DNA of 64,000 bases from Minisyncoccota bacterium. GTDB lineage: Bacteria > Patescibacteriota > Minisyncoccia > Phycocordibacterales > Phycocordibacteraceae. The notes beneath the pieces are model-generated. The model made no database searches, had not been told where the DNA came from, and was given only the letters and a program-made list of their open reading frames with translations. Location of the stretch: NCBI GenBank assembly GCA_035547315.1, contig DASZVH010000004.1, positions 76,108-140,107 on the forward strand. Reading direction: 5' to 3'. This document shows, piece by piece, positions 7,082 to 64,000 of the stretch. The position numbers were made by a program, and so were the translations under genes. Position 1 is the first letter of the stretch; each line of letters begins with the position of its first letter.

Positions 7082-8228
7082 GGAGCGCAGGGAGGAGGGA
7101 AAGCCGCGCGCGGCCGCCGCGCGCGGCGCGCATATCTCGCTCGGCCTCGGCGGGCTCGTCCTGATCGGCGCGGGCGCTTACCTCGCGCTCTGGAGCAACC
7201 TCTTTTCGATCGAGTACACGCGCGCGGACGGCGCGAGCTCGACCCCGCGCTACAAGGCGATCGACCCGGCGCTCTACAACCTCGAGGAGCTCGCGCTCGC
7301 GCACATCGACCCCTCCTTGACCACCCTGCTCCAGCCGCAGAACGCCTCCTCGACCTTGCTGGCCGCGACCACCACCGCCTCGAGCTCGGTGGCGATAGCG
7401 GGGAAGGCCTGGCCCGCGCCCTCGCCCTACCCGGCGCCCGGCGCGCTCCTCCCCGCGCATCGCATCGTGGCCTACTACGGCAACTTCTATTCCACCGCGA
7501 TGGGCGTGCTCGGCGAGTACCCCGCGGACCAGGTGCTCGCGATGCTCGCCTCCACGAGCGCCGAGTGGGAGGCGGCGGATCCGGCCACGCCGGTCATCCC
7601 GGCGATCGACTACATCGCGGTGACCGCGCAGGCCGCCGCCGGCGCCGACGGCAAGTACCGCGCGCGCATGCCGGCGAGCCAGATCGAGCAGGCGATCGCG
7701 ATGGCCAGCCAGCTCCACGGCATCGTGATTCTCGACGTGCAGGTCGGGCTCTCCGACCTGCCGACCGAACTCCCGCTCTTGGCGCCCTATCTCTCGCTCC
7801 CCAACGTCAATCTCGCGATCGATCCCGAGTTCTCGATGCAGACCAGCGGAGCCCGGCCGGGAACCGTCATCGGCACGTATAGCGCCAAGGATATCGACTA
7901 CGCGATCGACTACCTCGACTCCCTGGTGAAGCAAAACGATCTGCCGCCCAAGATCCTGGTGGTGCACCGCTTTACCGAGGACATGGTGACCAATTACCAA
8001 AACATCACGCCGCTCCCGGACGTGCAGGTGGTGATGGACATGGACGGCTGGGGCGACCAAGCCAAGAAGATCAACACCTACGAGCGCGTGATCGCGAGCG
8101 AGCCCGTTGAGTTCACCGGCTTCAAGCTTTTCTACAAGGCGGACTTGAAGCCGCCCTCGACCGGGCTTCTCGCGCCCGCGCAGGTATTGGCGCTCACGCC
8201 CGCGCCGATTTTCATCCAGTATCAATAA
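7062..8228 (+). CDS. hypothetical membrane-anchored protein, possibly TIM-barrel glycoside-hydrolase-like extracytoplasmic domain
   Basis: ORF overlapping helicase stop by 20 nt; TM segment LGGLVLIGAGAYLALW; motifs IVILDVQVG, ILVVHRFTEDMV, VVMDMDGWGD suggestive only. Confidence 0.45.
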   Translation: MMGRMPKERREEGKPRAAAARGAHISLGLGGLVLIGAGAYLALWSNLFSIEYTRADGASSTPRYKAIDPALYNLEELALAHIDPSLTTLLQPQNASSTLLAATTTASSSVAIAGKAWPAPSPYPAPGALLPAHRIVAYYGNFYSTAMGVLGEYPADQVLAMLASTSAEWEAADPATPVIPAIDYIAVTAQAAAGADGKYRARMPASQIEQAIAMASQLHGIVILDVQVGLSDLPTELPLLAPYLSLPNVNLAIDPEFSMQTSGARPGTVIGTYSAKDIDYAIDYLDSLVKQNDLPPKILVVHRFTEDMVTNYQNITPLPDVQVVMDMDGWGDQAKKINTYERVIASEPVEFTGFKLFYKADLKPPSTGLLAPAQVLALTPAPIFIQYQ

Positions 8229-8260
8229 GATGCGCGCTCGCTTCGCGAGCGCGCATCTTG
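8229..8260. terminator. perfect hairpin (aagatgcgcgctcgc-ttcg-cgagcgcgcatctt) between convergent genes
   Basis: 14-bp arms read directly, followed by ...gtttatttat. Confidence 0.5.
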
Positions 8261-29208: not shown

Positions 29209-31386
29209 TCACTCGAGGTGGATAGTCGCGGCGGCGCCCCGCGCGAGACGCGCGAGGAGCGGGTAGCTGGCAAGCTCCGGATCCTTGGCAAGGAGGCGCT
29301 TGGCCTCGCTCCGGGCCGCCTCGACGAGGCGTAAATTACCCAATGATTCCATAGCGATGTCGGATACTCCCCACTGATTTCCGCCCATGAGCTCGCCCGC
29401 TCCCCGCAGCGCCAGATCCCGCTTGGCGAGCTCAAAGCCGTTCTTGGCCGTGATGAGCGCGGTGAGGCGGGCCCGCACGCTCGCGGCCTTCGATTCGGCG
29501 AGGAGGAAACAGTACGCTTGGCGGTCGGAGCGGATCACGCGGCCGCGCAGCTGGTGCAGCTGCGCGAGGCCGAAGCGTTCGGCACCCTCAATCAGAATCA
29601 CGGTCGCGTTCGGCACGTTGACGCCCACTTCGACGACCGAGGTCGCGACCAGGATCTGCACCTCGCCCGCCGCGAACATGCGCATGGACTCCTCTTTCTC
29701 GGCTGGCGTCATCTTGGAGTGGAGGATACCGATGTCGAACTCGGGGAAGACCTCCTGGGCGAGCCGCGCGGCCTCCGCTTTTACCGAACGCATCTCACGC
29801 TTCTGGGGCTCGCCCGCGCCGCCGGCTTCTGCCGGGTCGATGCGCGGGCAGATAACGTATGCCTGGCGGCCCGCGGCGAGCTCCGCGCGCATGCGCTCGT
29901 ATGCGGCCGCGCGCGCCGCGGGCGCGACGACCTCGGTGATCACCGGCCGCCGGCCTGCCGGCAGCTCGTCGAGCACGGAGAGATCCAGATCGCCGTAGAG
30001 CGTGAGCGCGAGCGTGCGCGGGATCGGCGTCGCCGTCATCGAAAGCAGATGCGGCGTCAACAAGGTTCGTCCTTGTTTCAAGGTCGAACCTTGTTTGGTG
30101 ACGAGCTTCTGCCGGTGCGCGGTGCCGAAGCGATGCTGCTCTTCGATCACGGCGAGCGCGAGCCGCTTGAAAGAGAGCGTCTCCTGGATGAGCGCGTGCG
30201 TGCCGATGACGATCGGGATGAGGCCGTCGGCCACCCGCTTGCGGAAGGTCGCGCGCGAGAGCGCGGCGGACTCTTCGTAGGAGACGCGCGAGGGGAACAC
30301 GCGCGTCTCGCTGCCCGTGATGAGGCCGATCGGGATCGGGTGCGCGCGGAAATAGGAGACGAAGGTGGAGAAGTGCTGCTTGGCGAGCACCTCGGTCGGG
30401 CACAGGTAGGCGACCTGCGCGCCCGCCGCCGCGGCCAGATACGCCGCCGCCGCCGCGACCGCCGTCTTGCCGCTCCCGACGTCGCCCTCCAGGAGGCGCA
30501 GCATCGGCACGGGGCGCGCGAGGTCGCGCGCGATCGCCGCGATAGCGCGCCGCTGCGCGCGCGTCGGCGGGAAGGGAAAACTCGCGACGAACGCTTCGAG
30601 GAGGCCGGCGCCAGGCGCGAGCTCGAGCGCGCGCGTCGCGCGCACGGTGCGGCGGCGCTCCTCGAGCGCGAGCGTGAGCGCGAGGATCTGCTCGAAGGCG
30701 AAGCGCTTGCGGGCCGCGGCGGCATCTCCGGCCCGCCGGGGCCGATGTATATATATGAGCGCGTTCTCGAACGCCGGGAGCCGGTAGCGGCGCAGGAGCT
30801 CGGGGGGCAGCGGGTCGGCGAGCGCGCCGGCGAGCGCCTTGAGCGTTTTCCCGATCGCGTGGAAGAACCAGAGCGAGCTGATGCCCTCGCTTTCGGGGTA
30901 GACGGGGAAGACGGCGGGAGCGGGCGCCGGGCCGGGAGCCGGAGAGAAGAGCGAGGCATGCGCCTCCTCGGGGTCGATCGGCGCGCGATCCACCTCGGGG
31001 TTCGCGAGATAGGCGCCGCTCCCGGATCCCGCCACCCTCCCGCTCACCTTAACCGCCATGCCTTCGCGCAGCGATTTGGCGATATACGGCTGGGAGAACC
31101 ACATGAGCTTGATGCGTCCGCTCGCGTCCTCGAGCCAGGCCTCGGCCAGCGGGCGGCGGCTCTTCCAGCTCTTGCGTGCCTCGGGCTTGCGGATGACGCC
31201 GTAGAGCGTCGCGCTCGCGCCCGGCGCGACGCCCGCGATCGTCGCCGAGGGGCCGGCGGCCTCGTAGCGGGAGGGGAAGTGGTAGAGCAGGTCGTGCAGG
31301 GTCGCGATCTTGAGGCGCTTCAACGCGCGCCGCTGCTCCGGCTTGAGCTTGGGGAAGAGCTTCTCGAGCGGGTCGGCGGGAGCCAC
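29209..31386 (-). CDS. recG: ATP-dependent DNA helicase RecG
   Basis: Helicase motifs GDVGSGKT, DEQHRFG, LLSMTATPIPRTLALT, ...VEVGVNVPNATVILIEGAERFGLAQLHQLRGRV; start probably GTG/TTG near 31386-31392 (no ATG); upstream part of track ORF is Arg-rich non-coding extension. Confidence 0.85.
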   Translation of the reverse strand: MAPADPLEKLFPKLKPEQRRALKRLKIATLHDLLYHFPSRYEAAGPSATIAGVAPGASATLYGVIRKPEARKSWKSRRPLAEAWLEDASGRIKLMWFSQPYIAKSLREGMAVKVSGRVAGSGSGAYLANPEVDRAPIDPEEAHASLFSPAPGPAPAPAVFPVYPESEGISSLWFFHAIGKTLKALAGALADPLPPELLRRYRLPAFENALIYIHRPRRAGDAAAARKRFAFEQILALTLALEERRRTVRATRALELAPGAGLLEAFVASFPFPPTRAQRRAIAAIARDLARPVPMLRLLEGDVGSGKTAVAAAAAYLAAAAGAQVAYLCPTEVLAKQHFSTFVSYFRAHPIPIGLITGSETRVFPSRVSYEESAALSRATFRKRVADGLIPIVIGTHALIQETLSFKRLALAVIEEQHRFGTAHRQKLVTKQGSTLKQGRTLLTPHLLSMTATPIPRTLALTLYGDLDLSVLDELPAGRRPVITEVVAPAARAAAYERMRAELAAGRQAYVICPRIDPAEAGGAGEPQKREMRSVKAEAARLAQEVFPEFDIGILHSKMTPAEKEESMRMFAAGEVQILVATSVVEVGVNVPNATVILIEGAERFGLAQLHQLRGRVIRSDRQAYCFLLAESKAASVRARLTALITAKNGFELAKRDLALRGAGELMGGNQWGVSDIAMESLGNLRLVEAARSEAKRLLAKDPELASYPLLARLARGAAATIHLE
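30059..30096. repeat. tandem palindromic units CAAGGTTCGTCCTTG-ttt-CAAGGTCGAACCTTG inside recG coding sequence (in-frame)
   Basis: Read directly; related to element in lepA. Confidence 0.55.
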
Positions 31387-44258: not shown

Positions 44259-46082
44259 GTGGAGATACGCAACTTCTCGATCATCGCGCACATTGACCAC
44301 GGGAAGAGCACCCTGGCTGATCGCCTGCTCGAGAAGACGGGCACTATCCCCGAGCGCAAGATGCGCGCGCAGGTCTTGGACAAGATGGACCTCGAGCGCG
44401 AGCGCGGGATCACGATCAAGATGCAGCCGGTGCGGATGACCTATCGCGCGGCGGACGGTCGCGACTATATTTTGAATTTGATCGATACGCCCGGGCATAT
44501 CGACTTCTCCTATGAGGTCTCGCGGGCGCTTAAGGCGGTCGAGGGCGTCGTCTTGCTTGTGGACTCTACCCAGGGAGTCCAGGCGCAAACGTTGACCACC
44601 CTCGCCGCGGCCAAGGAGGCCGGCTGCGCTATCATCCCGGTGGTCTCCAAGATAGATTCTCCCTACGCGCGCGTGCCGGAGGTCAAAGCGGAGCTCGCGC
44701 GCCTGCTCGAGGTCCGGGAGGGGAGTGTGCTCGCGGTCTCGGGGAAGACGGGCGCCGGCGTAGAGCAATTGCTGCAGGCAATTGTGGAAAGAGTGCCCGC
44801 GCCGACAAGGTCGAACCTCGTAAATCCCGAAGGTTCGACCTTGTCGGGCGAAGCGCGCGGGCTCATCTTCGACTTCTCCTATTCCACGCACCGCGGCATC
44901 GCCGTCTATCTGCGCGTCTTCGACGGCTCGATCAAGGCGGGCGACAAATTGTCCTTCCGCGCGGCAGGCCGTGATTTTACGGCCCTCGAGGTCGGCGTCT
45001 TCACCCCCGAGGAGGCGCCCACCGCCGCGCTTGGCGCGGGAGAGATCGGCTACGTGGTCACCGGCATCAAGGAGCCGGGCGTGGTTGCGGTCGGCGACAC
45101 CGTCGGCGCCACCAAGGGTGCTCTGCCGGCCCTGGCGGGTTTTGAACGGCCGCGTCCGGTGGTCTGGGCCTCCGTCTATCCGGAAAGCCAAGACGATCTG
45201 CCACTTCTTCGCCAGGCGCTTGAGCGCCTGCGGCTCTCCGACTCCTCGCTCTCCTTTGAGGAGGAATCATCCGGGGTGCTCGGGCGAGGCTTCCGCTGCG
45301 GGTTCTTGGGGCTCCTCCATTTGGAGATCATCACGGAGCGCCTGCGGCGCGAGTTCAGCCTCACCTTGGTGGTCACGATCCCGACGATCTCCTATGTGGT
45401 CACCACGGAGAACGGCAAAACAGAGACTTACTACACGCCGGCCAAGTTCCCCGAGTTCGGCGAGATCAAAGAGATCCGCGAGCCTTGGGCAAACGCGATT
45501 ATCATCACGCCCCCAGAGTCCCTCTCCGGCATCATGCAGCTCCTCTACGAGCATGAGGCGGAAGTTAAAAACACCGAGACCTTCCCTGACGGCAGGATCG
45601 AGCTTGCTGCGGAGCTGCCCTTGCGGGAGCTTATGCGCGGATTCTTCGATGCACTCAAGAATGTCTCCTCGGGCTACGCGAGCCTCTCCTATGAGCTCCT
45701 GCCAGAGCGGCCGGCCGACGTGGTGCGTCTCGATATCTTGGTCGCGGAGGAGCCGGTGCCCGCCTTCGCGCGGATCGTCGCGCGGCGGCGCGTACAAGAG
45801 GAGGCGGAGAAGATGGTCGAGCGCCTCCATGCCATACTCCCCAAGCAGCTCTTTGTCACCAAGATCCAGGCGCGCGCCTTGGGGCGGATCATCTCCTCGC
45901 GCTCCTTATCCGCGATGCGCAAGGATGTCACGGGTTACCTCTACGGCGGCGACGTCTCCCGCAAGCAAAAACTCCTGCAAAAGCAGAAGCGGGGCAAGAA
46001 GAAGCTCCTCGCGCACGGCACCGGCCGGGTGACCATCCCCGAGGACGTCTTTATGAAGATGGTGCAGGAAAGCGACCGCTAA
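44259..46082 (+). CDS. lepA: elongation factor 4 (LepA)
   Basis: GTG start; IRNFSIIAHIDHGKSTLADRLL, DTPGHIDF, SKID G-motifs; C-terminal LepA-specific region ...LLQKQKRGKKK. Confidence 0.9.
   Translation: MEIRNFSIIAHIDHGKSTLADRLLEKTGTIPERKMRAQVLDKMDLERERGITIKMQPVRMTYRAADGRDYILNLIDTPGHIDFSYEVSRALKAVEGVVLLVDSTQGVQAQTLTTLAAAKEAGCAIIPVVSKIDSPYARVPEVKAELARLLEVREGSVLAVSGKTGAGVEQLLQAIVERVPAPTRSNLVNPEGSTLSGEARGLIFDFSYSTHRGIAVYLRVFDGSIKAGDKLSFRAAGRDFTALEVGVFTPEEAPTAALGAGEIGYVVTGIKEPGVVAVGDTVGATKGALPALAGFERPRPVVWASVYPESQDDLPLLRQALERLRLSDSSLSFEEESSGVLGRGFRCGFLGLLHLEIITERLRREFSLTLVVTIPTISYVVTTENGKTETYYTPAKFPEFGEIKEIREPWANAIIITPPESLSGIMQLLYEHEAEVKNTETFPDGRIELAAELPLRELMRGFFDALKNVSSGYASLSYELLPERPADVVRLDILVAEEPVPAFARIVARRRVQEEAEKMVERLHAILPKQLFVTKIQARALGRIISSRSLSAMRKDVTGYLYGGDVSRKQKLLQKQKRGKKKLLAHGTGRVTIPEDVFMKMVQESDR
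44804..44845. repeat. 42-nt palindromic element (15-bp perfect arms GACAAGGTCGAACCT / AGGTTCGACCTTGTC, 12-nt spacer) in-frame within lepA
   Basis: Read directly; encodes TRSNLVNPEGSTLS inserted between ...RVPAP and GEARGLIFD... Confidence 0.6.
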
Positions 46083-48607: not shown

Positions 48608-48970
48608 ATGGCATCGACCAAGCAGGTGCTTGCGGCGGGAGCGGCGGCCGCAGTAATGGCTGCGGGCGGGGCGGCAGGGATACCCGCCCCGGCCGCAGCG
48701 GCCGGGGCGGGCGCCCTCGAGCCGCCCGTCGGGAGCGTCTTCTCGGGCACTATAGAGATCGCCTCGACCCAAGGACTCCTGGTCGGCCGCAAGCAGAAGA
48801 AGGGCGGCGGACAGCTTATCGCGGTAGATACCGACGCCTCGACGGTGGTCTCCAAAGGCGGCCTCGAGCGGTCGGTAGAGGATCTTGCAAGCGGCGCGGA
48901 GGTCATCGTCTCAGGCGCAAAGCAGGAGGACGGCAGCATCTTGGCCTCCAAGATCATCATCAGAAATTAA
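48608..48970 (+). CDS. small secreted protein, DUF5666-like beta-barrel repeats
   Basis: Ala-rich signal region; ...GSVFSGTIEIAST.GLLV... and DLASGAEVIVSGAKQEDGSILASKIIIRN repeat units. Confidence 0.45.
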   Translation: MASTKQVLAAGAAAAVMAAGGAAGIPAPAAAAGAGALEPPVGSVFSGTIEIASTQGLLVGRKQKKGGGQLIAVDTDASTVVSKGGLERSVEDLASGAEVIVSGAKQEDGSILASKIIIRN

Positions 48971-56969: not shown

Positions 56970-59189
56970 GAACTCGGCGTTTTTGGTGGGGAGGGATTGG
57001 TAGATTTCCTCGGTGAGGAAGGGCATGAAGGGGTGGAGCGCCTTCACCAAGGCATCGAGCGCGTAGAGGAGGAAGGCCTGGCGCGAGGCCTTTCCCGCCT
57101 CGGGAGCGCTCGAGGGCGCGACTTTGGTGCCGAGTATCTGCTTCGACTCCTCGAGGATCTCGTCGGCGAGCCGATGCCATGCGTAGTGATAGAGCTTCTC
57201 CGCGGCGAGATAGAAGCGGGACTCCTCGAGATCTTTGGTCACATCCGCGAGGAGAGAATCAAGCTCGTCCGCGAGTTCTTGATCGACCGGCAGCAGCGTC
57301 GAGGGATAGTAAGACTTGGCCGAGCGGCCCGGAGCGCTTTCCCGAGATGCTGCTGCCGGGAGATCTGGCGCGCTCTCCAAGATAAAGCGCGCGATGTTCC
57401 ACAATTTATTCGCGAAGTGCTTGTAGCCCTTGACCTTCTGCTCGTCGAACTTTATGTCGTTGCCGACCGCCGTGCCGACCAAGAGGCCCATCCGCAGCGC
57501 GTCCGCTCCATATTTGTCGATCATTTCCAGGGGGTCGATGCCGTTGCCCTGCGACTTGGAGAACTTGCGCCCGCTCTTGTCGCGTACGAGGCCGTGGATC
57601 AGCACGGTCTTGAAGGGGACCTGCCCAAGATGGAAGCCGGCCATGAGTATCATGCGCGAGACCCAGAGAGTGAGGATCTCGTAGCCCGGGCTCATAAAAG
57701 CGGTCGGGTGGTAGGTGCCGAGATCCAGAGTGTGGTCGGGCCAGCCGAGCGTGGAGAAGGTCCAGAGCGCGGAGGAGAACCAGGTGTCGAGCACGTCCGG
57801 GTCCTGGAGCCAGGTCGCGGAGTCCTCGGGCGCCTCGCCCACGCGGATCTCCTCGCCGCGATACCAGACCGGGATCCGGTGGCCGAACCAGATCTGCCTG
57901 CTGATGCACCAGTCGCGCAGGTTGTCGATCCAGTGGAAGTACGCGTTGCGGAATCCCTCTTGCGGCATCGCGACCGCGCCGCTCTCGACCGCCTTGCGCA
58001 TCAGCTGCTTGAGCGTGATCGGCGCTCCGGCGGGGATTCCGGGGATGGAAGAGTGCGCGAGAGTGAAGGGCTTCTCTACGTCCACCCACCACTGCATCTT
58101 GGGCAAGGGCTCGATAACGGCGCCGGTGCGCTCGGCGGTCGCGATGTTTTGCAACACATCCTCCTCCTTCTCCAAGAGGCCCTGGCTCTGGAGCCAGTCG
58201 ACCACGGCCGCGCGCGCCTCGGCGGCCTTGAGCCCGTTAAGGCGGCCCTCGACCTTCATCTTGGCGTATTCGTTGATCACGACGTTGTCGGTGGGGAGCG
58301 CGTGGCGGCGGGCGATCTCCCAGTCTATTTGCGAGTGCGCCGGAGTGACCCCGACCGCGCCGGTGCCGAAGGAGGGATCAACCGCCGCGTCCGCGACGAT
58401 CTTGAGATGGACAGGCACGTCGCAGAATACGGTGTCGTACTCTTTGCCGAGGAACGGCTGGTAGCGCGGGTCCTCGGGGTGCACCGCGACCGCGACGTCG
58501 CCCGCTTTGGTCTCCGGGCGCGTGGTCGCTATCGAGATCGGGAAGTCTTTGGAATATTTGAAGGTGTAGAGCTTGCCCGGGCGCTCCTCGTAGACGATCT
58601 CGTCGTCGCTGATGGTGGTCTGGCCCTTCGGGTCCCAGTTGACGATGCGGTAGCCGCGATAGATAAGCCCGGCCTTGTACATCCGCGTGAAGGCCTCGGT
58701 GACCGCGCGGCTGCGCGCCTTGTCGAGCGCGTAAGCGTAGCGGCTCCAGTCCAGGCTCGCGCCCATGCGGCGGATCTGGTTGAGGATCGTAGACTCGCTC
58801 TCCTTGGCAAAGGCGGTAATCCGGCGCACGAGCTCCTCGCGCCCGAGATCGTGCCGGCTCTTGCCCTCCTCCTTTTGGATATTCTTCTCTACGCGCGCCT
58901 GGGTCGCGATCGCGGCCGAGTCGGTCCCGGGCACAAACAGCGCGCGCTTTCCGCGCATGCGCGCGTAGCGGATCACCGCGTCCTGGAGCGAGTCTTCATA
59001 GGCATGGCCCAGGTGGAGCACGCCCGTGACATTGACCGGCGGGAGCACGACCGAGAAGGGCTCGGTGCGCTCGCCTGGGAGATTGTCGGGGTTGAAATAC
59101 CCGCTCTTCTCCCAGGCCTCGTAGATTCTCCCCTCGGTCCCTGCCGGGTCGTAGGGCTTGGTGAATTTGGGGTCTACCTCTTTTGCCAT
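56943..59189 (-). CDS. valS: valine--tRNA ligase (short form)
   Basis: PPVNVTGVLHLGHA (HIGH), KFSKSQGN (KMSKS), ValS-type N-terminus YDPAGTEGRIYEAWEKSGYF; 748 aa, shorter than typical ValS. Confidence 0.75.
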   Translation of the reverse strand: MAKEVDPKFTKPYDPAGTEGRIYEAWEKSGYFNPDNLPGERTEPFSVVLPPVNVTGVLHLGHAYEDSLQDAVIRYARMRGKRALFVPGTDSAAIATQARVEKNIQKEEGKSRHDLGREELVRRITAFAKESESTILNQIRRMGASLDWSRYAYALDKARSRAVTEAFTRMYKAGLIYRGYRIVNWDPKGQTTISDDEIVYEERPGKLYTFKYSKDFPISIATTRPETKAGDVAVAVHPEDPRYQPFLGKEYDTVFCDVPVHLKIVADAAVDPSFGTGAVGVTPAHSQIDWEIARRHALPTDNVVINEYAKMKVEGRLNGLKAAEARAAVVDWLQSQGLLEKEEDVLQNIATAERTGAVIEPLPKMQWWVDVEKPFTLAHSSIPGIPAGAPITLKQLMRKAVESGAVAMPQEGFRNAYFHWIDNLRDWCISRQIWFGHRIPVWYRGEEIRVGEAPEDSATWLQDPDVLDTWFSSALWTFSTLGWPDHTLDLGTYHPTAFMSPGYEILTLWVSRMILMAGFHLGQVPFKTVLIHGLVRDKSGRKFSKSQGNGIDPLEMIDKYGADALRMGLLVGTAVGNDIKFDEQKVKGYKHFANKLWNIARFILESAPDLPAAASRESAPGRSAKSYYPSTLLPVDQELADELDSLLADVTKDLEESRFYLAAEKLYHYAWHRLADEILEESKQILGTKVAPSSAPEAGKASRQAFLLYALDALVKALHPFMPFLTEEIYQSLPTKNAEFLMISHWPV

Positions 59190-59230
59190 TGCCTACGAAA
59201 TATAGCAAAAACCGCGCCAAAAGGCGCGGC

Positions 59231-60460
59231 TTAGGCGAGCGAGAGGGCGCCGGAGGCGGAGAGGGTGGCGGGGTCGGCGAAGTCGGAGCGGAGCGCGCGG
59301 AAGTAGCCCGCGAGCGCGATCATGAGCGCGTTGTCGGTGGTGAGGTCCGCGGAGGGGATGCGCAGGTCTACACCCGGAAATTCTTTAGCGATGTTTTCTT
59401 TAAAAACGCGGCGGATGTGAGTGTTGGCCGAGACGCCGCCGCCGATCACCACGGTCTTCGCGCCGGTCTCCTTGAGCGCTCGCGCGGTCTTCGCCCAGAG
59501 CACCTCGCTTACCGCCTCCTCGAAGGCGAGCGCGATACGCTTTTTGTCTTCATCGTTGATGCCGTCCTGCTTCTTCAAGAGATAGAGCACCGCCGTCTTG
59601 AGTCCGGCGAAGGAGAAGTCGCAGGTGGCGTCATGGAGCATCGGGCGGGGGAGCGCGAGGCCTTTTATGAAATCGTCCGGCTCATTGCGCGCCGCCTCCG
59701 CGAGTTTTGATATCTGCGGGCCGCCCGGGTAGAGGAGGCCGAGCATGCGCGCGACCTTGTCGAAGGCCTCGCCGACCGCGTCGTCGCGCGTCTGGCCGAT
59801 CAATTCGTACTCTAACCACTCGCGCATAAGCACGAGCTCGGTGTGTCCACCCGAGATAAGGAGCGCGAGGATAGGCACCTCGACGCCTTTGATCTCAAGC
59901 GTCTCTCCGCTCTTCTGCGCCAGGCCCGCGAGCACATGCCCCTCCATATGATTAACGGCGACTATCGGCAGCCCCCACGCCGCTGCGAGTGCCTTGGCGA
60001 AGTTGATGCCCACCCAGAGCGCGGGCTCGAGCCCGGGGCCCGCGGTGACCGCGATCGCGTCGAGCGCGGGCCGCTCGCACTCCTTCAAAAATTCGAGCAA
60101 ATTCTCCGCGAGCGCGCCCTCGCGCGCGAGCAGATCGGCGAGCGAGGCGCGCAGCGCCTCGTCGAGCTCCTGCTCGCTTTCATGCAAAAGCTCCGCCTCC
60201 TCGAGCGCGGCCTCAAGCAGGGGGACAAGATTCTTGGCGTGCTCGCGCTTGGCGAGCGCGGGGAAGACGCCGCCATATTCCGCGTGCTTCTCCACCTGCG
60301 AAAGCAGGGCGTTGCCGAGAATCTTGAAACTCGCGGAAGAGGGAGCTTCTCTTCGGGTTGAGAGTCCAGCAAAACCCTTCGAGAAGCTCCCTCCTCCGCT
60401 CGCCTCCACGACCGCTACCGCGGTCTCGTCGCAACTGGTCTCGATAGCCAGGATTTTCAT
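59231..60460 (-). CDS. tsaD: tRNA N6-adenosine threonylcarbamoyltransferase TsaD (with about 70-aa insertion)
   Basis: MKILAIETSCDETAVAVV, ...ALLISGGHTELV..., GVEVPILAL; start cat 60458-60460; track ORF extension to 60772 is antisense of orn. Confidence 0.85.
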   Translation of the reverse strand: MKILAIETSCDETAVAVVEASGGGSFSKGFAGLSTRREAPSSASFKILGNALLSQVEKHAEYGGVFPALAKREHAKNLVPLLEAALEEAELLHESEQELDEALRASLADLLAREGALAENLLEFLKECERPALDAIAVTAGPGLEPALWVGINFAKALAAAWGLPIVAVNHMEGHVLAGLAQKSGETLEIKGVEVPILALLISGGHTELVLMREWLEYELIGQTRDDAVGEAFDKVARMLGLLYPGGPQISKLAEAARNEPDDFIKGLALPRPMLHDATCDFSFAGLKTAVLYLLKKQDGINDEDKKRIALAFEEAVSEVLWAKTARALKETGAKTVVIGGGVSANTHIRRVFKENIAKEFPGVDLRIPSADLTTDNALMIALAGYFRALRSDFADPATLSASGALSLA

Positions 60461-60484
60461 AGCGCTATCCTGTACTATAACCGC

Positions 60485-61039
60485 ATGCAGCGCAACGACC
60501 TCCTCTGCTGGGTTGACCTCGAGATGACCTCGCTCGCGGACGCCCGCAAAGACTCGATCATCGAGCTCGCGCTCGTGCTTACGGACGGGGAATTGAACGT
60601 AGTCGCCGAGGGGCCGGATCTCATCATCCACGCGGAGCAGGCAGTTTTTGACGCCCTGCCGGCGGAGGTACGCGCTTTCCACGAGGCGACCGGCATCATC
60701 CCCGAGGCAGTTGCGAGCGAGCTCACGGAAGGGGAGGCCGAAGAGCGGGTGCTCGCTTTCCTCAAGGAGCATTGCGCGCCGCAGTCGGCGCCCCTATGCG
60801 GCAACTCGATCTCGACTGATCGCCACTTCCTCAAGACGCGAATGCCTGCGCTCGACCAGTACCTTTTCTACCGCTCGATAGACGTCTCAAGCATCAAAGA
60901 GCTCGCCAAGCGCTGGGCGCCCGAGGTTTTTGAAAAAGCGCGCGAGCGCAAAGGCGCGAGCGCGCATCGCGCCAAGAGCGACATCATGAAATCGATAGAG
61001 GAGCTCCGCTTCTACCGCGGCGCCCTGTTTACTCGCTGA
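60485..61039 (+). CDS. orn: oligoribonuclease
   Basis: DEDDh motifs: LCWVDLEMTSL, CGNSISTDRHFL, HRAKSDI. Confidence 0.85.
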   Translation: MQRNDLLCWVDLEMTSLADARKDSIIELALVLTDGELNVVAEGPDLIIHAEQAVFDALPAEVRAFHEATGIIPEAVASELTEGEAEERVLAFLKEHCAPQSAPLCGNSISTDRHFLKTRMPALDQYLFYRSIDVSSIKELAKRWAPEVFEKARERKGASAHRAKSDIMKSIEELRFYRGALFTR

Positions 61040-61881
61040 CTTCTTCCCAGGGCAGGGGGCCGCCGGCGGGGATGAAGAAGCCGGCAGAGCCCTTGAGGCC
61101 ATTGCCGCCGTATTTGCGGGCTATCGCGGCGACATCTACTGAGCCGTCGCCGCGTATCGAGACGCCGAAGCCGTCCGGGTGCGCAGAGACCACAAGCGCC
61201 AAGGGCGGCCACTTGCTTGCGAGCTCGTGACCCACATGGGATTTCATCGCCATCACTGGGTGCGTGATGCCGAAGCCGATCTCGTAGCCCTCAAATTTAA
61301 CCTTCTTTGCGCCCGCAACCGACATCTCGGCAAGCTTAAGGAAGTACTCGTTGTAGGTCTTGGCGGTCGAGAGAATCTTGGCCTCTCCCTCTGGCGTCTC
61401 GAGCGCTTTCACGATGCGATCCCAGCTTTCAAAGTCATAGGGCTCGACGATGAGGTAGGAGTAGATCTCCTCGGTCTCGGGGAGCGCGTAGCGGTAGAGG
61501 TCGCCGTCTTCGATGAAGGTGAGGAGCTTCGGCGTTGGCTCGCCCGGGTGGAAGTAGCTCCAGGAAATCGTCGCGCCCGAGTGTTCAGTGTCGAAAACGC
61601 CGGGATACTGTGTCGCCACATCTTTCACACCATGGTGATGGTCGAGAATCGCGATTGATTTCGTGCGTGCAGAAAACTCCTCAAGCTCTTTAGCTGTAGG
61701 GCAGAAGTCGACAAAGACTACATCTCGCTCCTCCATCTTCTCGGGCAGGGGCTTGCCGTAGGAGACGGGGATGTACTCGGCCTCTTCGCCGAACTTCTTC
61801 CAGGCGGCGTATGCGGCGCCGAAACCGTCGATGCACTTGCTGTGATAGAGGATTACCTGCTGCTGCTTCTCGTGCGGGGTC
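61029..61881 (-). CDS. DHH-family phosphoesterase (NrnA-like nanoRNase/pAp phosphatase)
   Basis: DHH motifs: LYHSKCIDGFGAAYAAW, FVDFCP, ILDHHH; DHHA1-like GGNGLKGSAG; start cat 61879-61881. Confidence 0.7.
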
Positions 61882-61888
61882 ATGATGG

Positions 61889-62800
61889 TTATTTTACAAA
61901 ACGAGTATATATCCCTGCGGGGACCACGCGCTCGGTCGAGGACTCTTTGATAAGGAGCTCGCCGGATTCTCCCGCCGTTTCGCCGAAGGCGCTCTCGACT
62001 GCCTGGGAGAAAGCGCGCGGCGAGTAGCCGGCAGCGTAGCCCGAAATAAGGAAGAAGGAGCCTGGCGCCTCGCCCAAGAGCTCTTTGAGGACGGCGAGGA
62101 GCGTGGGCAAGTCCTCCTCGATCTTCCACACCTCGCCTTTGCCGCCGCGGCCGAAGGCCGGCGGGTCGAGTATGATGCCCTCATACTTCGCCCCGCGGCG
62201 CGCCTCGCGCTTGGCGAAGGCGAGGCAATCGTCCGGGATCCAGCGGATCGCGCCCTCGGCGAGGCCGGTGGCGCGCGCGTTCTCATGCGCGTAGTCGAGC
62301 GATTGCTTCGAGGAGTCCACATGCGTCACGAAAGCGCCTGCGTGCGCCGCCGCCAAGGTCGCGACGCCGGTATAGCCGAAGAGGTTCAGCACGCTCGGTT
62401 TCTCGACGCCACCCGCGATAAGCGCTTTGACCCGATCCTTGATCCAGATCCAGTTGGGTTCCTGCTCGGGGAAGACGCCGGTATGCTTGAAGCCCGAGAG
62501 GCGAGCAATGAACTTGAGCGGGCCGCGGCTCATCTCCCAGCCGTTATCGAGGTTTAACCTCGATAACGGAGGTAACGGAGGTTTAACCTCGGTGACGGTC
62601 CAACTGCCTTTGCCGTTTGAGAAGGCGAACTCCGCGCTTGTCTCGCTCCAACGTTCGGGCGCGCGTTTAGCCCAGAGCGCCTGCGTCTCCGGGCGCGCGA
62701 CGACGATCTTGCCGAAGCGCTCGAGCTTCATGTTCTCGCCGCTGTCGAGGAGCTCGTAGTCCTCCCAGCCTTTGGTCACCAGGTGTTTGTCGTGGGTCAT
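61889..62800 (-). CDS. class I SAM-dependent rRNA methyltransferase (RlmI/RlmK-like)
   Basis: VLNLFGYTGVATLAAAHAGA, ...IILDPPAFGRG..., PUA-like N-terminus; start cat 62798-62800 (ATGA overlap with rlmB-like stop). Confidence 0.7.
   Translation of the reverse strand: MTHDKHLVTKGWEDYELLDSGENMKLERFGKIVVARPETQALWAKRAPERWSETSAEFAFSNGKGSWTVTEVKPPLPPLSRLNLDNGWEMSRGPLKFIARLSGFKHTGVFPEQEPNWIWIKDRVKALIAGGVEKPSVLNLFGYTGVATLAAAHAGAFVTHVDSSKQSLDYAHENARATGLAEGAIRWIPDDCLAFAKREARRGAKYEGIILDPPAFGRGGKGEVWKIEEDLPTLLAVLKELLGEAPGSFFLISGYAAGYSPRAFSQAVESAFGETAGESGELLIKESSTERVVPAGIYTRFVK
62541..62598. repeat. 29-nt perfect palindrome (CCGTTATCGAGGTT-t-AACCTCGATAACGG) plus adjacent partial copy (CGGAGGTTTAACCTCGG) inside methyltransferase coding sequence, in-frame
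   Basis: Read directly; encodes ...PPLPPLSRLNLDNG...; AT-richer than flanks. Confidence 0.55.
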
Positions 62801-63561
62801 GCAGAAGGGGTCGACAGGGAAGCGGGGTGCTTTTTGCTCCACTCGTAGAAGACGATGCCTGCCGAGGCTGCGGCGTTAAGCGATTCGGTGCGCGGGTGCA
62901 TCGGGATGGCGAGCGTGATATCGCAGGCCGCGAGCGTCTTTTCCCTGATTCCCGCGCCTTCGTTCCCGATCACGAACGCCGAGGGCTTCTCGAAGCCTTC
63001 GTTCCCGAGCGCTTGGCCCTCCATGTCGAGGCCGTAGGTCCAGAAGCCCTTCTTCTTCAAGACCTCGAGCGCGTGGTTGACGTTGCCTATAGAGACGAGC
63101 GGGATGCGGAAGGCCATGCCCGCCGAGCTCTTCACCACGGCGCCCGTGATCGGCGCCTGATTACGCTCGGGGATGAGCACGGCCGAGAGGCCGAAGGCCG
63201 CCGCCGAGCGGATGATCGCGCCCACGTTGTGCGGGTCTTGCACTTCTCCGAGGACTGCTATCGCGGTATCTTCTGATACCTCAAGCGACTCGATAAAGTC
63301 ATCAAATTGCGTCAGGAGCTTCCCCGGCTCCATGAGCGCGACGACGCCCTGGTGGACCGCGTCGCGCCCAGCCATCTCGTTGCCGTTCTTGAGGAGGTCG
63401 GTCGGGATCTTGTGCGTAGCGAGCATCTCCGCGAGCTCGTGGTCGCGGAGCTCGGGCGCGAGATATACTTTCTTGATGACGGCCGGATTGCCCGCAAGCG
63501 CCTCCTCAAGCGCGTGCTTGCCGTAGATATAGACCTTCTCGTTCTTTTGCGGCCGAGCCAT
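62797..63561 (-). CDS. rlmB: TrmH/SpoU-family RNA 2'-O-methyltransferase (RlmB-like)
   Basis: VYIYGKHALEEAL, QDPHNVGAIIRSAAAFG, FVIGNEGAGI, ...ESLNAAASAGIVFYEW. Confidence 0.8.
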   Translation of the reverse strand: MARPQKNEKVYIYGKHALEEALAGNPAVIKKVYLAPELRDHELAEMLATHKIPTDLLKNGNEMAGRDAVHQGVVALMEPGKLLTQFDDFIESLEVSEDTAIAVLGEVQDPHNVGAIIRSAAAFGLSAVLIPERNQAPITGAVVKSSAGMAFRIPLVSIGNVNHALEVLKKKGFWTYGLDMEGQALGNEGFEKPSAFVIGNEGAGIREKTLAACDITLAIPMHPRTESLNAAASAGIVFYEWSKKHPASLSTPSA

Positions 63562-63563
63562 TT

Positions 63564-63639
63564 TGGTGCGCGGTGAGGGACTTGAACCCCCGACCCCATC
63601 CACGTCAAGGAAGTGCTCTACCAACTGAGCTAACCGCGC
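63564..63639 (-). tRNA. tRNA-Val (anticodon GAC), CCA encoded
   Basis: Minus strand GCGCGGTTAGCTCAGTTGGTAGAGCACTTCCTTGACGTGGATGGGGTCGGGGGTTCAAGTCCCTCACCGCGCACCA; anticodon loop UUGACGU (one U-U mismatch in stem). Confidence 0.7.
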
Positions 63640-63989
63640 GCCCCTGGAGGATACATTTTTTCGCGCAATTCCTCAAGCTGCCGCAAGACGGCGGGATCGG
63701 CGATCTTGGCGAAGCGGGGGAAGCGCTTGCCTTCCTTCTCGACCTCTTCCATGAACATCGACAAGGGGCGCACGTCGAACATCCTGCCATTCTTATAGAC
63801 AAAGGCCTCATAGAGCGGGCGATAGACCACGAGAAAGCGATCGCGCTCCTCACAGTCGTCCTCGGTGTGGTGGCCGATGCCGACGACCTCGTAGGCGTAG
63901 TTATTAAACGCACCGGCGGGGTCGTGCTTGTAGTGGTAATAAAAACCGATCTGCGGTACCTCGGTGGGGACAGACGATTCGTACGCCAT
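63630..63989 (-). CDS. DUF1653 domain protein
   Basis: GFYYHYKHDPAGAFNNYAYEVVGIGHHTEDDCEERDRFLVVYRPLYEA...FDVRPLSMFMEEV matches DUF1653; last 3 codons overlap tRNA-Val 5' end. Confidence 0.55.
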   Translation of the reverse strand: MAYESSVPTEVPQIGFYYHYKHDPAGAFNNYAYEVVGIGHHTEDDCEERDRFLVVYRPLYEAFVYKNGRMFDVRPLSMFMEEVEKEGKRFPRFAKIADPAVLRQLEELREKMYPPGARG

Positions 63990-64000
63990 CCGCTCAGTAT

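Follow-up and report, generated by a model that had tools for sequence, protein, structure and literature searches.

A 58-nt double mini-hairpin inserted in frame in a methyltransferase gene of a Minisyncoccota bacterium: a probable decayed member of a REP/REPIN-like family

The DNA analysed here, hereafter the window, is a stretch of 64,000 nucleotides (nt) from a Minisyncoccota bacterium (GenBank assembly GCA_035547315.1, contig DASZVH010000004.1, positions 76,108 to 140,107). Close to its end lies a gene for a protein of 303 residues (P0001), annotated at source as a class I S-adenosylmethionine (SAM)-dependent methyltransferase of Candidatus Paceibacterota, and within this gene we find a 58-nt palindromic element, at 62541–62598, composed of two consecutive hairpin units (Table 1). 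P0001 matches Pfam PF10672 (Methyltrans_SAM), a domain that also matches RlmI, its NCBIfam matches of the RlmK/RlmI type are weak, its catalytic domain is RlmI/RlmK-like, and its closest solved structure is 2IGT (sequence E 1.4e-57; fold template modelling score, TM, 0.86). The description of the gene as RlmI-like in the original prediction, made from the DNA letters, therefore agrees with the Pfam and 2IGT matches; as for the PUA-like character given there to the N-terminal region, the model indeed has a beta-rich, 2IGT-like N-terminal domain, but no PUA match was obtained in Pfam. In what follows, contigs and loci carry L numbers and proteins carry P numbers.

Table 1. Coordinates, in the window, of the methyltransferase gene, of the parts of its palindromic element and of the two further family copies
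Feature	Position	Strand	Description
Host gene P0001	61889-62800	minus	303 residues, intact; class I SAM-dependent methyltransferase (PF10672; 2IGT type)
Hairpin unit 1	62541-62569		Perfect 29-nt palindrome; 13-bp hairpin in coding-strand RNA fold
Hairpin unit 2	62570-62598		Imperfect copy of unit 1, 22/29 identical, core GAGGTTTAACCTC
Doublet as matched by family model R1	62545-62594		Core, 16-nt spacer, core
Tandem duplication	62564-62581		9 nt, perfect, TAACGGAGG x2; read from sequence and codon view
Second family copy, lepA (EF4)	44802-44847		In frame; R1 39.8 bits, E 3e-10
Third family copy, recG	30058-30096		In frame; R1 31.4 bits, E 1.3e-7

Relative to homologs, the element adds 11 codons, in frame, to a surface loop of the N-terminal domain. 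It is read in frame on the minus strand of the open reading frame (ORF), where it encodes ...TVTEVKPPLPPLSRLNLDNGWE..., about residues 69–87 of P0001, in the loop between strands 64–69 and 88–92. That it is an insertion follows from four observations: the segment between two invariant motifs has 49 residues in 95 of 120 homologs and 60 in P0001; in P0002 and P0003, the nearest relatives (85% and 80% identity, respectively, over the alignment columns shared), the site is empty at the DNA level (TGG ATC ATC CAC ACC AAA GCG CCG GAG AGC TGG); the alignment of 2IGT to P0001 has a 10-residue gap at the element site; and, in the AlphaFold model of P0001 (mean predicted local distance difference test score, pLDDT, 87), residues 70–87 are coil, with pLDDT below 50 at positions 78–83. 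The comparison with orthologs that the original prediction had proposed thus gave a gap and not a gap-free alignment.

The first unit reads CCGTTATCGAGGTT-T-AACCTCGATAACGG, with 14-nt perfect arms and a 1-nt centre; its outer stem is CCGTTATCG/CGATAACGG, its inner stem is AGGTT/AACCT. The second contains a 25-nt palindrome (62572–62596) with 10 of 12 arm positions paired. An exact search for the core of unit 2 found exactly two occurrences within the window, 29 nt apart and both in this element. Since both units are palindromic with the same central base, direct and inverted orientations of the doublet are indistinguishable. The 9-nt tandem duplication, overlooked in the original prediction, is part of the spacer and encodes, on the minus strand, PPL-PPL, which accounts for three of the 11 residues gained. 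In the window, four palindromes have arms of at least 14 nt, against 0.0 in 40 dinucleotide shuffles; the three others (2873–2907, 8227–8259 and 48683–48711) are GC-rich (0.64–0.97). The GC content of the element is 0.517, against 0.638 in the remainder of the gene. The palindrome with its partial copy, its relative richness in AT and its improbability by chance are all, then, as first described. The mRNA strand of the element has a predicted fold of -29.4 kcal/mol (z -4.3) and the plus strand a single long predicted hairpin of -35.3 kcal/mol (z -5.6), and an Rfam scan of 61500–64000 (E up to 1) returned only a neighbouring tRNA, with no family match for the element. A misassembly, a worry raised with the original description, is unlikely, because a separately assembled Logan contig (L081, run SRR12170514), collinear with window positions 57774–63593 at all sampled anchors, has the exact 58-nt element and the identical 303-residue protein.

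We were able to recognise in this element the design of a family of double mini-hairpins, RAGGT-NNN-ACCTY, a spacer of 10–16 nt and RAGGT-N'N'N'-ACCTY, often with complementary bases outside, in which the pair can fold into one hairpin. The relaxed core RAGGT-N(1-5)-ACCTY has six matches in the window (0.53 expected), in three places: the methyltransferase gene, lepA and recG. A covariance model (R1) was built from 93 metagenome elements, none of them from the window, and has 13 paired positions; searched against the window with filters off, it matches exactly these three places, the methyltransferase site with 33.8 bits (E 2.4e-8) on the plus strand and 31.0 bits on the minus strand, the next best match having 7.4 bits. 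All three copies are intragenic. The lepA copy encodes PTRSNLVNPEGSTLSG, and the protein has there 9 residues more than the solved EF4; the recG copy encodes KQGSTLKQGRTL, with 6 residues more than the solved RecG. The three elements belong to one dispersed family. A design shared with the lepA element had been proposed in the original prediction, together with a motif search; a single model now covers both sites, and the search, within the window, added recG to them.

The family is widespread. Many of the 80 Paceibacterota loci that were fetched via the methyltransferase have the same design, AAGGT-NNN-ACCTT, either as one hairpin or as a pair, and frequently with GGGAATCTGMATT as the spacer. 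When metagenomes were scanned for the pair, at least 120 contigs were obtained, mostly from groundwater-type samples (judged by contig names and composition), with GC content between 0.3 and 0.57. A scan of viral contigs returned only three with the paired pattern, which rules out a phage-borne family; one of them (L084, 11324–11405; GC 0.68) carries two adjacent AAGGT doublets in tandem. Among about 130 doublets, the loop triplets of the two units are complementary in about 96 and identical in about 10. Of 130 metagenome doublets, 64 lie well inside ORFs of at least 100 residues, a location shared by 73.5% of random positions; copies therefore occur within genes as well as between them and slightly favour non-coding DNA, and several intergenic copies are followed by T-runs, terminator-like. 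A wider set, to which the 80 methyltransferase loci were added, has 72 intragenic copies, spread over all three frames (34/19/19); where the orientation of the spacer can be called, 20 have the same and 23 the opposite orientation relative to the host gene, with no bias. Such a spread over every frame and either orientation speaks against a functional role of the encoded peptide. No target-site duplication was detected, there being no direct repeats longer than 3 nt around 96 doublets and none at all around 82 of these. Complementarity extends at least 3 nt into unique flanks in 29 of the 96 doublets, where about 1.5 were expected, and the outer arms of unit 1 behave likewise. Core-spacer-core lengths that are multiples of three are not in excess in intragenic relative to intergenic copies (Fisher p 0.67). 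Doublets number 3 in the 64 kb of the window and 18 in the 1.15 Mb of the methyltransferase loci, and L211 reaches 10 in 20.8 kb. A longer intergenic repeat, gtcgttcctcg.cgta.tcg..RAGGTGCGACCTTggccaactg, is located at 3' gene ends, with at least five nearly identical copies within 20 kb (L211 2117–2162, 3438–3483, 6286–6331, 6382–6427 and about 7380–7425; also L209 7391–7436), which suggests a recently active subfamily on the same core.

In related genomes of the candidate phyla radiation (CPR, Patescibacteria), the family is associated with genes for transposases resembling the repetitive extragenic palindromic (REP)-associated tyrosine transposases (RAYT). In one contig retrieved by the DNA pattern alone (L192) we noticed an ORF of 272 residues with the motifs YHVFNRG, MPNHYHLIL and EYVFSNP, which matches Y1_Tnp (PF01797; 29.2 bits, cut-off 23) and whose sole NCBIfam match is the REP-associated tyrosine transposase, with 42.9 bits, below the cut-off of 80. 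A doublet is found on each side of this ORF (1127–1183 and 2036–2091) and a third copy lies in frame inside it. Homologs of the ORF were detected by tblastn in 8 of 120 contigs derived from the pattern and in 0 of 81 control (methyltransferase) loci; in the 64-kb window, neither such a homolog nor the genes that are its syntenic neighbours elsewhere were detected. In L171 and L088, AGGT-core hairpins stand directly at the ends of the RAYT-like gene, while in other pattern-derived contigs the gene is flanked by different hairpins. The protein family has 957 matches; those named at source are called transposases and come from Paceibacterota, Nealsonbacteria, the Patescibacteria group and one Omnitrophota.

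The association also appears when the proteins are the starting point. Among six RAYT-like loci picked by protein similarity alone (L208–L213), five (L208, L209, L210, L211 and L213) have AGGT-NNN-ACCT hairpins on both sides of the gene, in the forms (GTTG)TGCA-AGGT-NNN-ACCT-TGCA(CAAC) or AAATACAC-AGGT-TGC-ACCT-GTGTATTT, and the sixth, L212, has the variant CCGGT-NNN-ACCGG (ATACACCGGT-TGA-ACCGGTGTAT). The copies in L208 and L209, which were outside the training set of R1, score 42–43 bits with it. The transposase gene lies in one shared neighbourhood in four genomes (LTD, a DeoR-type helix-turn-helix protein, a sigma-70 factor and DUF5667), with a gene for about 700 residues directly upstream and, in loci that extend far enough, ClpB beyond it; no TnpB partner was called adjacent to it in the four syntenic loci. 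In the RAYT-like proteins (e.g. P0121), Asn110, His111, Tyr112, His113 and Tyr173 are invariant, followed by Asn177-Pro178, that is, the HUH motif and the catalytic tyrosine are both present. A profile of 34 family members matched, in the PDB, only IS200/IS605 TnpA and E. coli TnpA-REP, weakly (E 0.02–0.07). Each of four orthologous RAYT-like genes has a doublet of the family within its ORF, in frame and at the same position (L208 10203–10246, L209 10188–10231, L210 10194–10225 and L211 10206–10249), which may be a site of autoregulation. According to precomputed Pfam calls, L212 (1269–2744) has a NifU gene of Nealsonbacteria that contains an intein with a LAGLIDADG endonuclease domain.

The codon occupied in P0001 is also filled in other lineages. 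In a metagenome-assembled genome of Kaiserbacteria (L003, protein P0045), exactly the same position contains GTCAGC-AAGGTTAAACCTT-TAGAATCTGCATC-AAGGTTTAACCTT-GCTGAC, an element with 19-nt perfect arms, a near-canonical family spacer and 47.8 bits with R1; in L206 (P0034) it contains GCGCAGGTCAGACCTGCG-AAATT-CGCAGGTCTGACCTGCGC, with 22 bits, and P0048 and P0112 have insertion peptides equivalent to that of P0034. Altogether, an element of any kind is present at this site in 5 of 120 orthologs. When the 120 homologs are placed in a neighbour-joining tree, the filled alleles are split among three separate lineages that share no ancestor more recent than that of the whole tree, an indirect sign of mobility; they could reflect recurrent site-specific gain, lateral transfer of alleles or many exact losses. 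A native AAGGT at the empty site was considered as a target and not adopted, as it is present in L207 and absent from L205 and most others.

The methyltransferase gene has, in other genomes, a second insertion hotspot, about 340–400 nt into the gene, with a composite type of palindrome, GGACGTCGTACGTCC-TACATCaGATGTA-GGACGTACGACGTCC, which encodes PTSDVGPTRSYI-like peptides and consists of a mini-hairpin, a 13-nt spacer and the inverted mini-hairpin, with stems unlike those of the AAGGT family (L028 3257–3299, L047 13031–13073, L053 10352–10404, L063 10342–10384, L069 10374–10418, L003 10358–10404 and others). Small insertions of the PPAGG type occur at differing positions in the homologs P0075, P0079, P0100, P0119 and P0066; the one case read as DNA, at about 3330–3360 of L009, is encoded by a palindrome, TCCGCCAGCTGGCGGA, a further small palindrome type.

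We consider it likely that the 58 nt represent an ancient doublet of the REP/REPIN kind (REPINs being REP doublets that form hairpins), decayed in part, translated and tolerated in frame. A RAYT-type Y1/HUH transposase would bind folded hairpins in single-stranded DNA and spread them, in the way already proposed for REPINs and RAYTs, its gene being an apparently single-copy, vertically inherited gene of the IS200/RAYT type that hairpins with the same core flank in CPR/Patescibacteria. In gene-dense genomes, many hairpin copies would land within genes, and the survivors would be those copies that keep the frame, contain no stop and sit in tolerant surface loops, where they would then be translated. 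The methyltransferase copy may have landed, or have been copied, into such a loop of the N-terminal domain, presumably moved by a RAYT that the source genome would also have encoded, and a later slippage duplication of 9 nt would have added the three residues mentioned above. The segment is presumably translated and the copy probably neutral or selfish: no host benefit is proposed, and it would persist because any imprecise deletion would disrupt the methyltransferase gene. A lower R1 score and outer arms of its own are consistent with the age proposed for the copy. Unit 1 is perfectly symmetric, which suggests upkeep of the hairpin symmetry, and template switching during replication may be the process responsible, alongside transposition. 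The connection of this palindrome with REP elements and RAYT is made here and was not part of the original prediction.

Several observations weigh against this interpretation. The filling of the same codon in three unrelated lineages is not predicted by simple random transposition. The link to the enzyme rests on other genomes, as there is no RAYT homolog within the window, and in those genomes the transposase remains under the NCBIfam cut-off and has weak PDB matches. The GTAG or CGTC tag of classical REPs is absent, in the sequences as read, beside the window units and the RAYT-flanking copies, and REPs are by definition mainly extragenic, whereas the three window copies are all intragenic. 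Different outer stems, and scores below those of canonical copies, show that the three did not arise recently from one master copy. At their central base, the two units at 62541–62598 are direct, not inverted, copies. In addition, the target-site duplication that would be expected of a miniature inverted-repeat transposable element is absent, and core-spacer-core lengths, not enriched for multiples of three in intragenic copies, do not define the true ends of the element.

It is conceivable, although unlikely, that the element had a local origin, in which a native quasi-palindrome was perfected and extended by intrastrand template switching and then enlarged by slippage, with no mobile element involved. 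The clean tandem duplication, the outer arms CCGTTATCG/CGATAACGG, which are unique to the methyltransferase copy, the extension of complementarity into unique flanks in 29 of 96 doublets and the lack of a target-site duplication all point in this direction, as do the native GDTL codons at one tsaD site, which are already core-like (GAGGTGACACCTT), and the loop triplets that flip (CGA/TCG) between orthologous copies. Nevertheless, a model trained elsewhere matches the site at E 2.4e-8, the L003 insertion has the canonical non-palindromic spacer (10/13 to GGGAATCTGMATT), which local templating cannot yield, and the same core flanks RAYT genes. Template switching may still keep the arms perfect, and to that extent a local process is partly complementary to the spread of a REP/REPIN-like doublet that we favour. 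We regard as rather improbable a selected cis-acting element, whether a structure in the mRNA through which translation or decay is adjusted or a site bound by a protein, with the peptide as a by-product. The stable structures predicted for both strands, the perfect symmetry of one arm pair, the T-runs that often follow intergenic family copies and the internal copy kept by four orthologous RAYT genes, a hint of use, would suit it; but a site occupied in only 5 of 120 orthologs, empty in the nearest relatives and without an Rfam match argues against it, and family copies in unrelated genes, in all frames and both orientations, fit insertion followed by filtering.

A role of the core as a signal for uptake or recognition, like that of the DNA uptake sequences (DUS) of naturally competent bacteria, with accumulation by biased uptake and recombination, was rejected on density and appears very improbable. 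The motif is a short palindrome, single or in inverted pairs; its intergenic pairs resemble terminators, as do pairs of DUS in Neisseria; and its copies in the window lie in core genes of genome maintenance and translation (recG, lepA). Yet its density is far too low, both in the window and in the related loci, its centre triplet and flanks are variable, and its copies are true insertions of 6–11 codons and not point-mutational matches. Least probable of all is an artefact of assembly or sequencing: chimeric reads or fold-back library artefacts can create palindromes, but the same 58 nt and the same protein recur in the separately assembled contig from SRR12170514, the ORF is intact, and homologous elements occupy the same codon in assemblies from other projects (L003, L206).

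Coding palindromes are also found in tsaD. The window tsaD gene has, at 60333–60399 (minus strand), a unique in-frame insertion of 16 residues, in the SGGGSFSKGFAGLSTRREAPSSASF region, whose 27-nt inverted-repeat arms are 85% complementary, a type of hairpin distinct from the AAGGT family; the segment has 40 residues here and 24 in the short form present in 68 of 75 related loci. Another segment of the Paceibacterota TsaD is 37 residues longer than in three related loci (103 and 66 residues, respectively, between two motifs), and its core, (E)TRAKISEILAREPGL, is encoded in many lineages by a 33-nt perfect palindrome, CGCGCGCCAAAATTTC-a-GAAATTTTGGCGCGCG (L003 12051–12083, L016 4659, L021 10020, L036 3230, L041 7933 and many others). 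Changes in these lineages are compensatory and preserve the perfect palindrome, and in other lineages the palindrome has decayed and the peptide was kept; it looks like an ancient coding palindrome turned into a fixed part of the protein. The tsaD loop between HMEGH and LPVLAL is hypervariable among L001–L080, with a base length of 19 residues and up to 65, and contains single or double AAGGT hairpins, repeated ALASGNHVA-like segments (L025, L036 and L028) and, in L058, a single hairpin that substitutes native codons with the length unchanged. As for the surroundings of the methyltransferase gene, it is preceded by an ORF for a SpoU/TrmH-type methyltransferase, and a tRNA gene (63567–63639, minus strand; Rfam 63.9 bits) lies directly upstream of the latter; the long ORF call at 62797–63624 overlaps the tRNA, so the true start of the SpoU/TrmH-type gene is further downstream.

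A broader hypothesis, which we put forward as tentative, is that CPR/Patescibacteria possess a previously undescribed, miniaturised REPIN-RAYT system whose repeats are largely translated, in-frame hairpins within essential genes. In such a system, the same codons may be revisited in independent lineages, which would imply site-specific targeting of sequences that resemble the core; palindromic symmetry may be actively maintained and extended into host sequence; some copies may become fixed protein segments, with TRAKISEILAR of the Paceibacterota TsaD as a candidate; and the transposase gene may be regulated via the copy inside its own ORF. The repeats would then continually supply loop insertions to proteins encoded by streamlined genomes. 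In ordinary bacteria, REPINs and RAYTs are seen as partnerships of repeat and enzyme that are long-lived, passed on vertically and confined to intergenic DNA. The same architecture is unexpected in CPR, because the genomes are tiny and gene-dense, and there the elements are reduced to one third of their usual size, with about half of their copies lying inside housekeeping genes and read as translated. If the REP/REPIN-like interpretation of the family is correct, the host range and lifestyle of REPIN/RAYT-type elements are extended, and a class of short insertions, loops of low confidence and AT-rich palindromes that had lacked an explanation in annotated CPR proteins receives one. The P0121-type Y1 transposases and the AAGGT-N3-ACCTT hairpins form a candidate enzyme-substrate pair. 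Our search of the literature on palindromic, in-frame or REPIN/RAYT-type elements in CPR found no description of them, its coverage being incomplete and the result an absence of evidence only.

The known systems closest in architecture are the REP/REPIN elements with their RAYT transposases (Nunvar 2010; Bertels and Rainey 2011, PMC3116915, PMC3337134; Bertels 2017, PMC5581495). As in these, the units are short imperfect palindromes, paired with a short variable spacer, and the pair folds into one hairpin; unit lengths (29 nt for unit 1, 25–29 nt for unit 2) fall within the range of about 20–40 nt; copies of the family are dispersed among the contigs sampled and lack a target-site duplication; and a Y1/HUH gene without a TnpB partner, apparently single-copy and inherited vertically, stands between such hairpins in related CPR genomes. 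Nevertheless, the CPR family has a 13-nt core and doublets of 36–42 nt, about three times smaller than the REPINs of Pseudomonas (about 89–110 nt), about half of its sampled copies are intragenic and in frame, its transposase is longer (about 240–270 residues) and below the NCBIfam RAYT cut-off, and its hosts are CPR/Patescibacteria. In classical REPs, a conserved tetranucleotide, GTAG or CGTC, marks one end of the hairpin (PMC3733652). The CPR system, although it works like REPIN/RAYT, departs from the definition in two parts, since it is not extragenic and has no such tag.

Coding palindromes and very small double hairpins have also been described in organelles. Mitochondrial genes of Nematomorpha contain perfect inverted repeats of up to 284 bp in coding sequence, with both arms translated (PMC6649704). 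In both cases symmetry is kept despite the coding constraint, but the nematomorph repeats belong to animal mitochondria and are not a short dispersed repeat family with a conserved core. The double-hairpin elements of Allomyces mitochondrial DNA and the GC clusters of yeast mitochondria are very small mobile elements with two hairpins, located between and inside genes; these differ in being confined to organelle genomes, in having sequences unrelated to the CPR family and in having no known associated Y1 transposase.

In their relation to proteins, the copies described here resemble the Rickettsia palindromic elements (RPE), reportedly described by Ogata and colleagues in 2000. RPEs are in-frame translated palindromes of roughly 100–150 bp, in surface loops of housekeeping genes, with no evident host function; to our knowledge they are confined to Rickettsia and no transposase is known for them. 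The P0001 element is likewise an in-frame, stop-free palindromic insertion in a surface loop of a housekeeping gene. Compared by description, the element of P0001 has 58 nt and its family is three to four times shorter than RPEs, and it comes with a candidate enzyme which, if the REP/REPIN-like interpretation holds, would provide the first candidate enzymatic mechanism for in-frame palindromes of the Rickettsia type.

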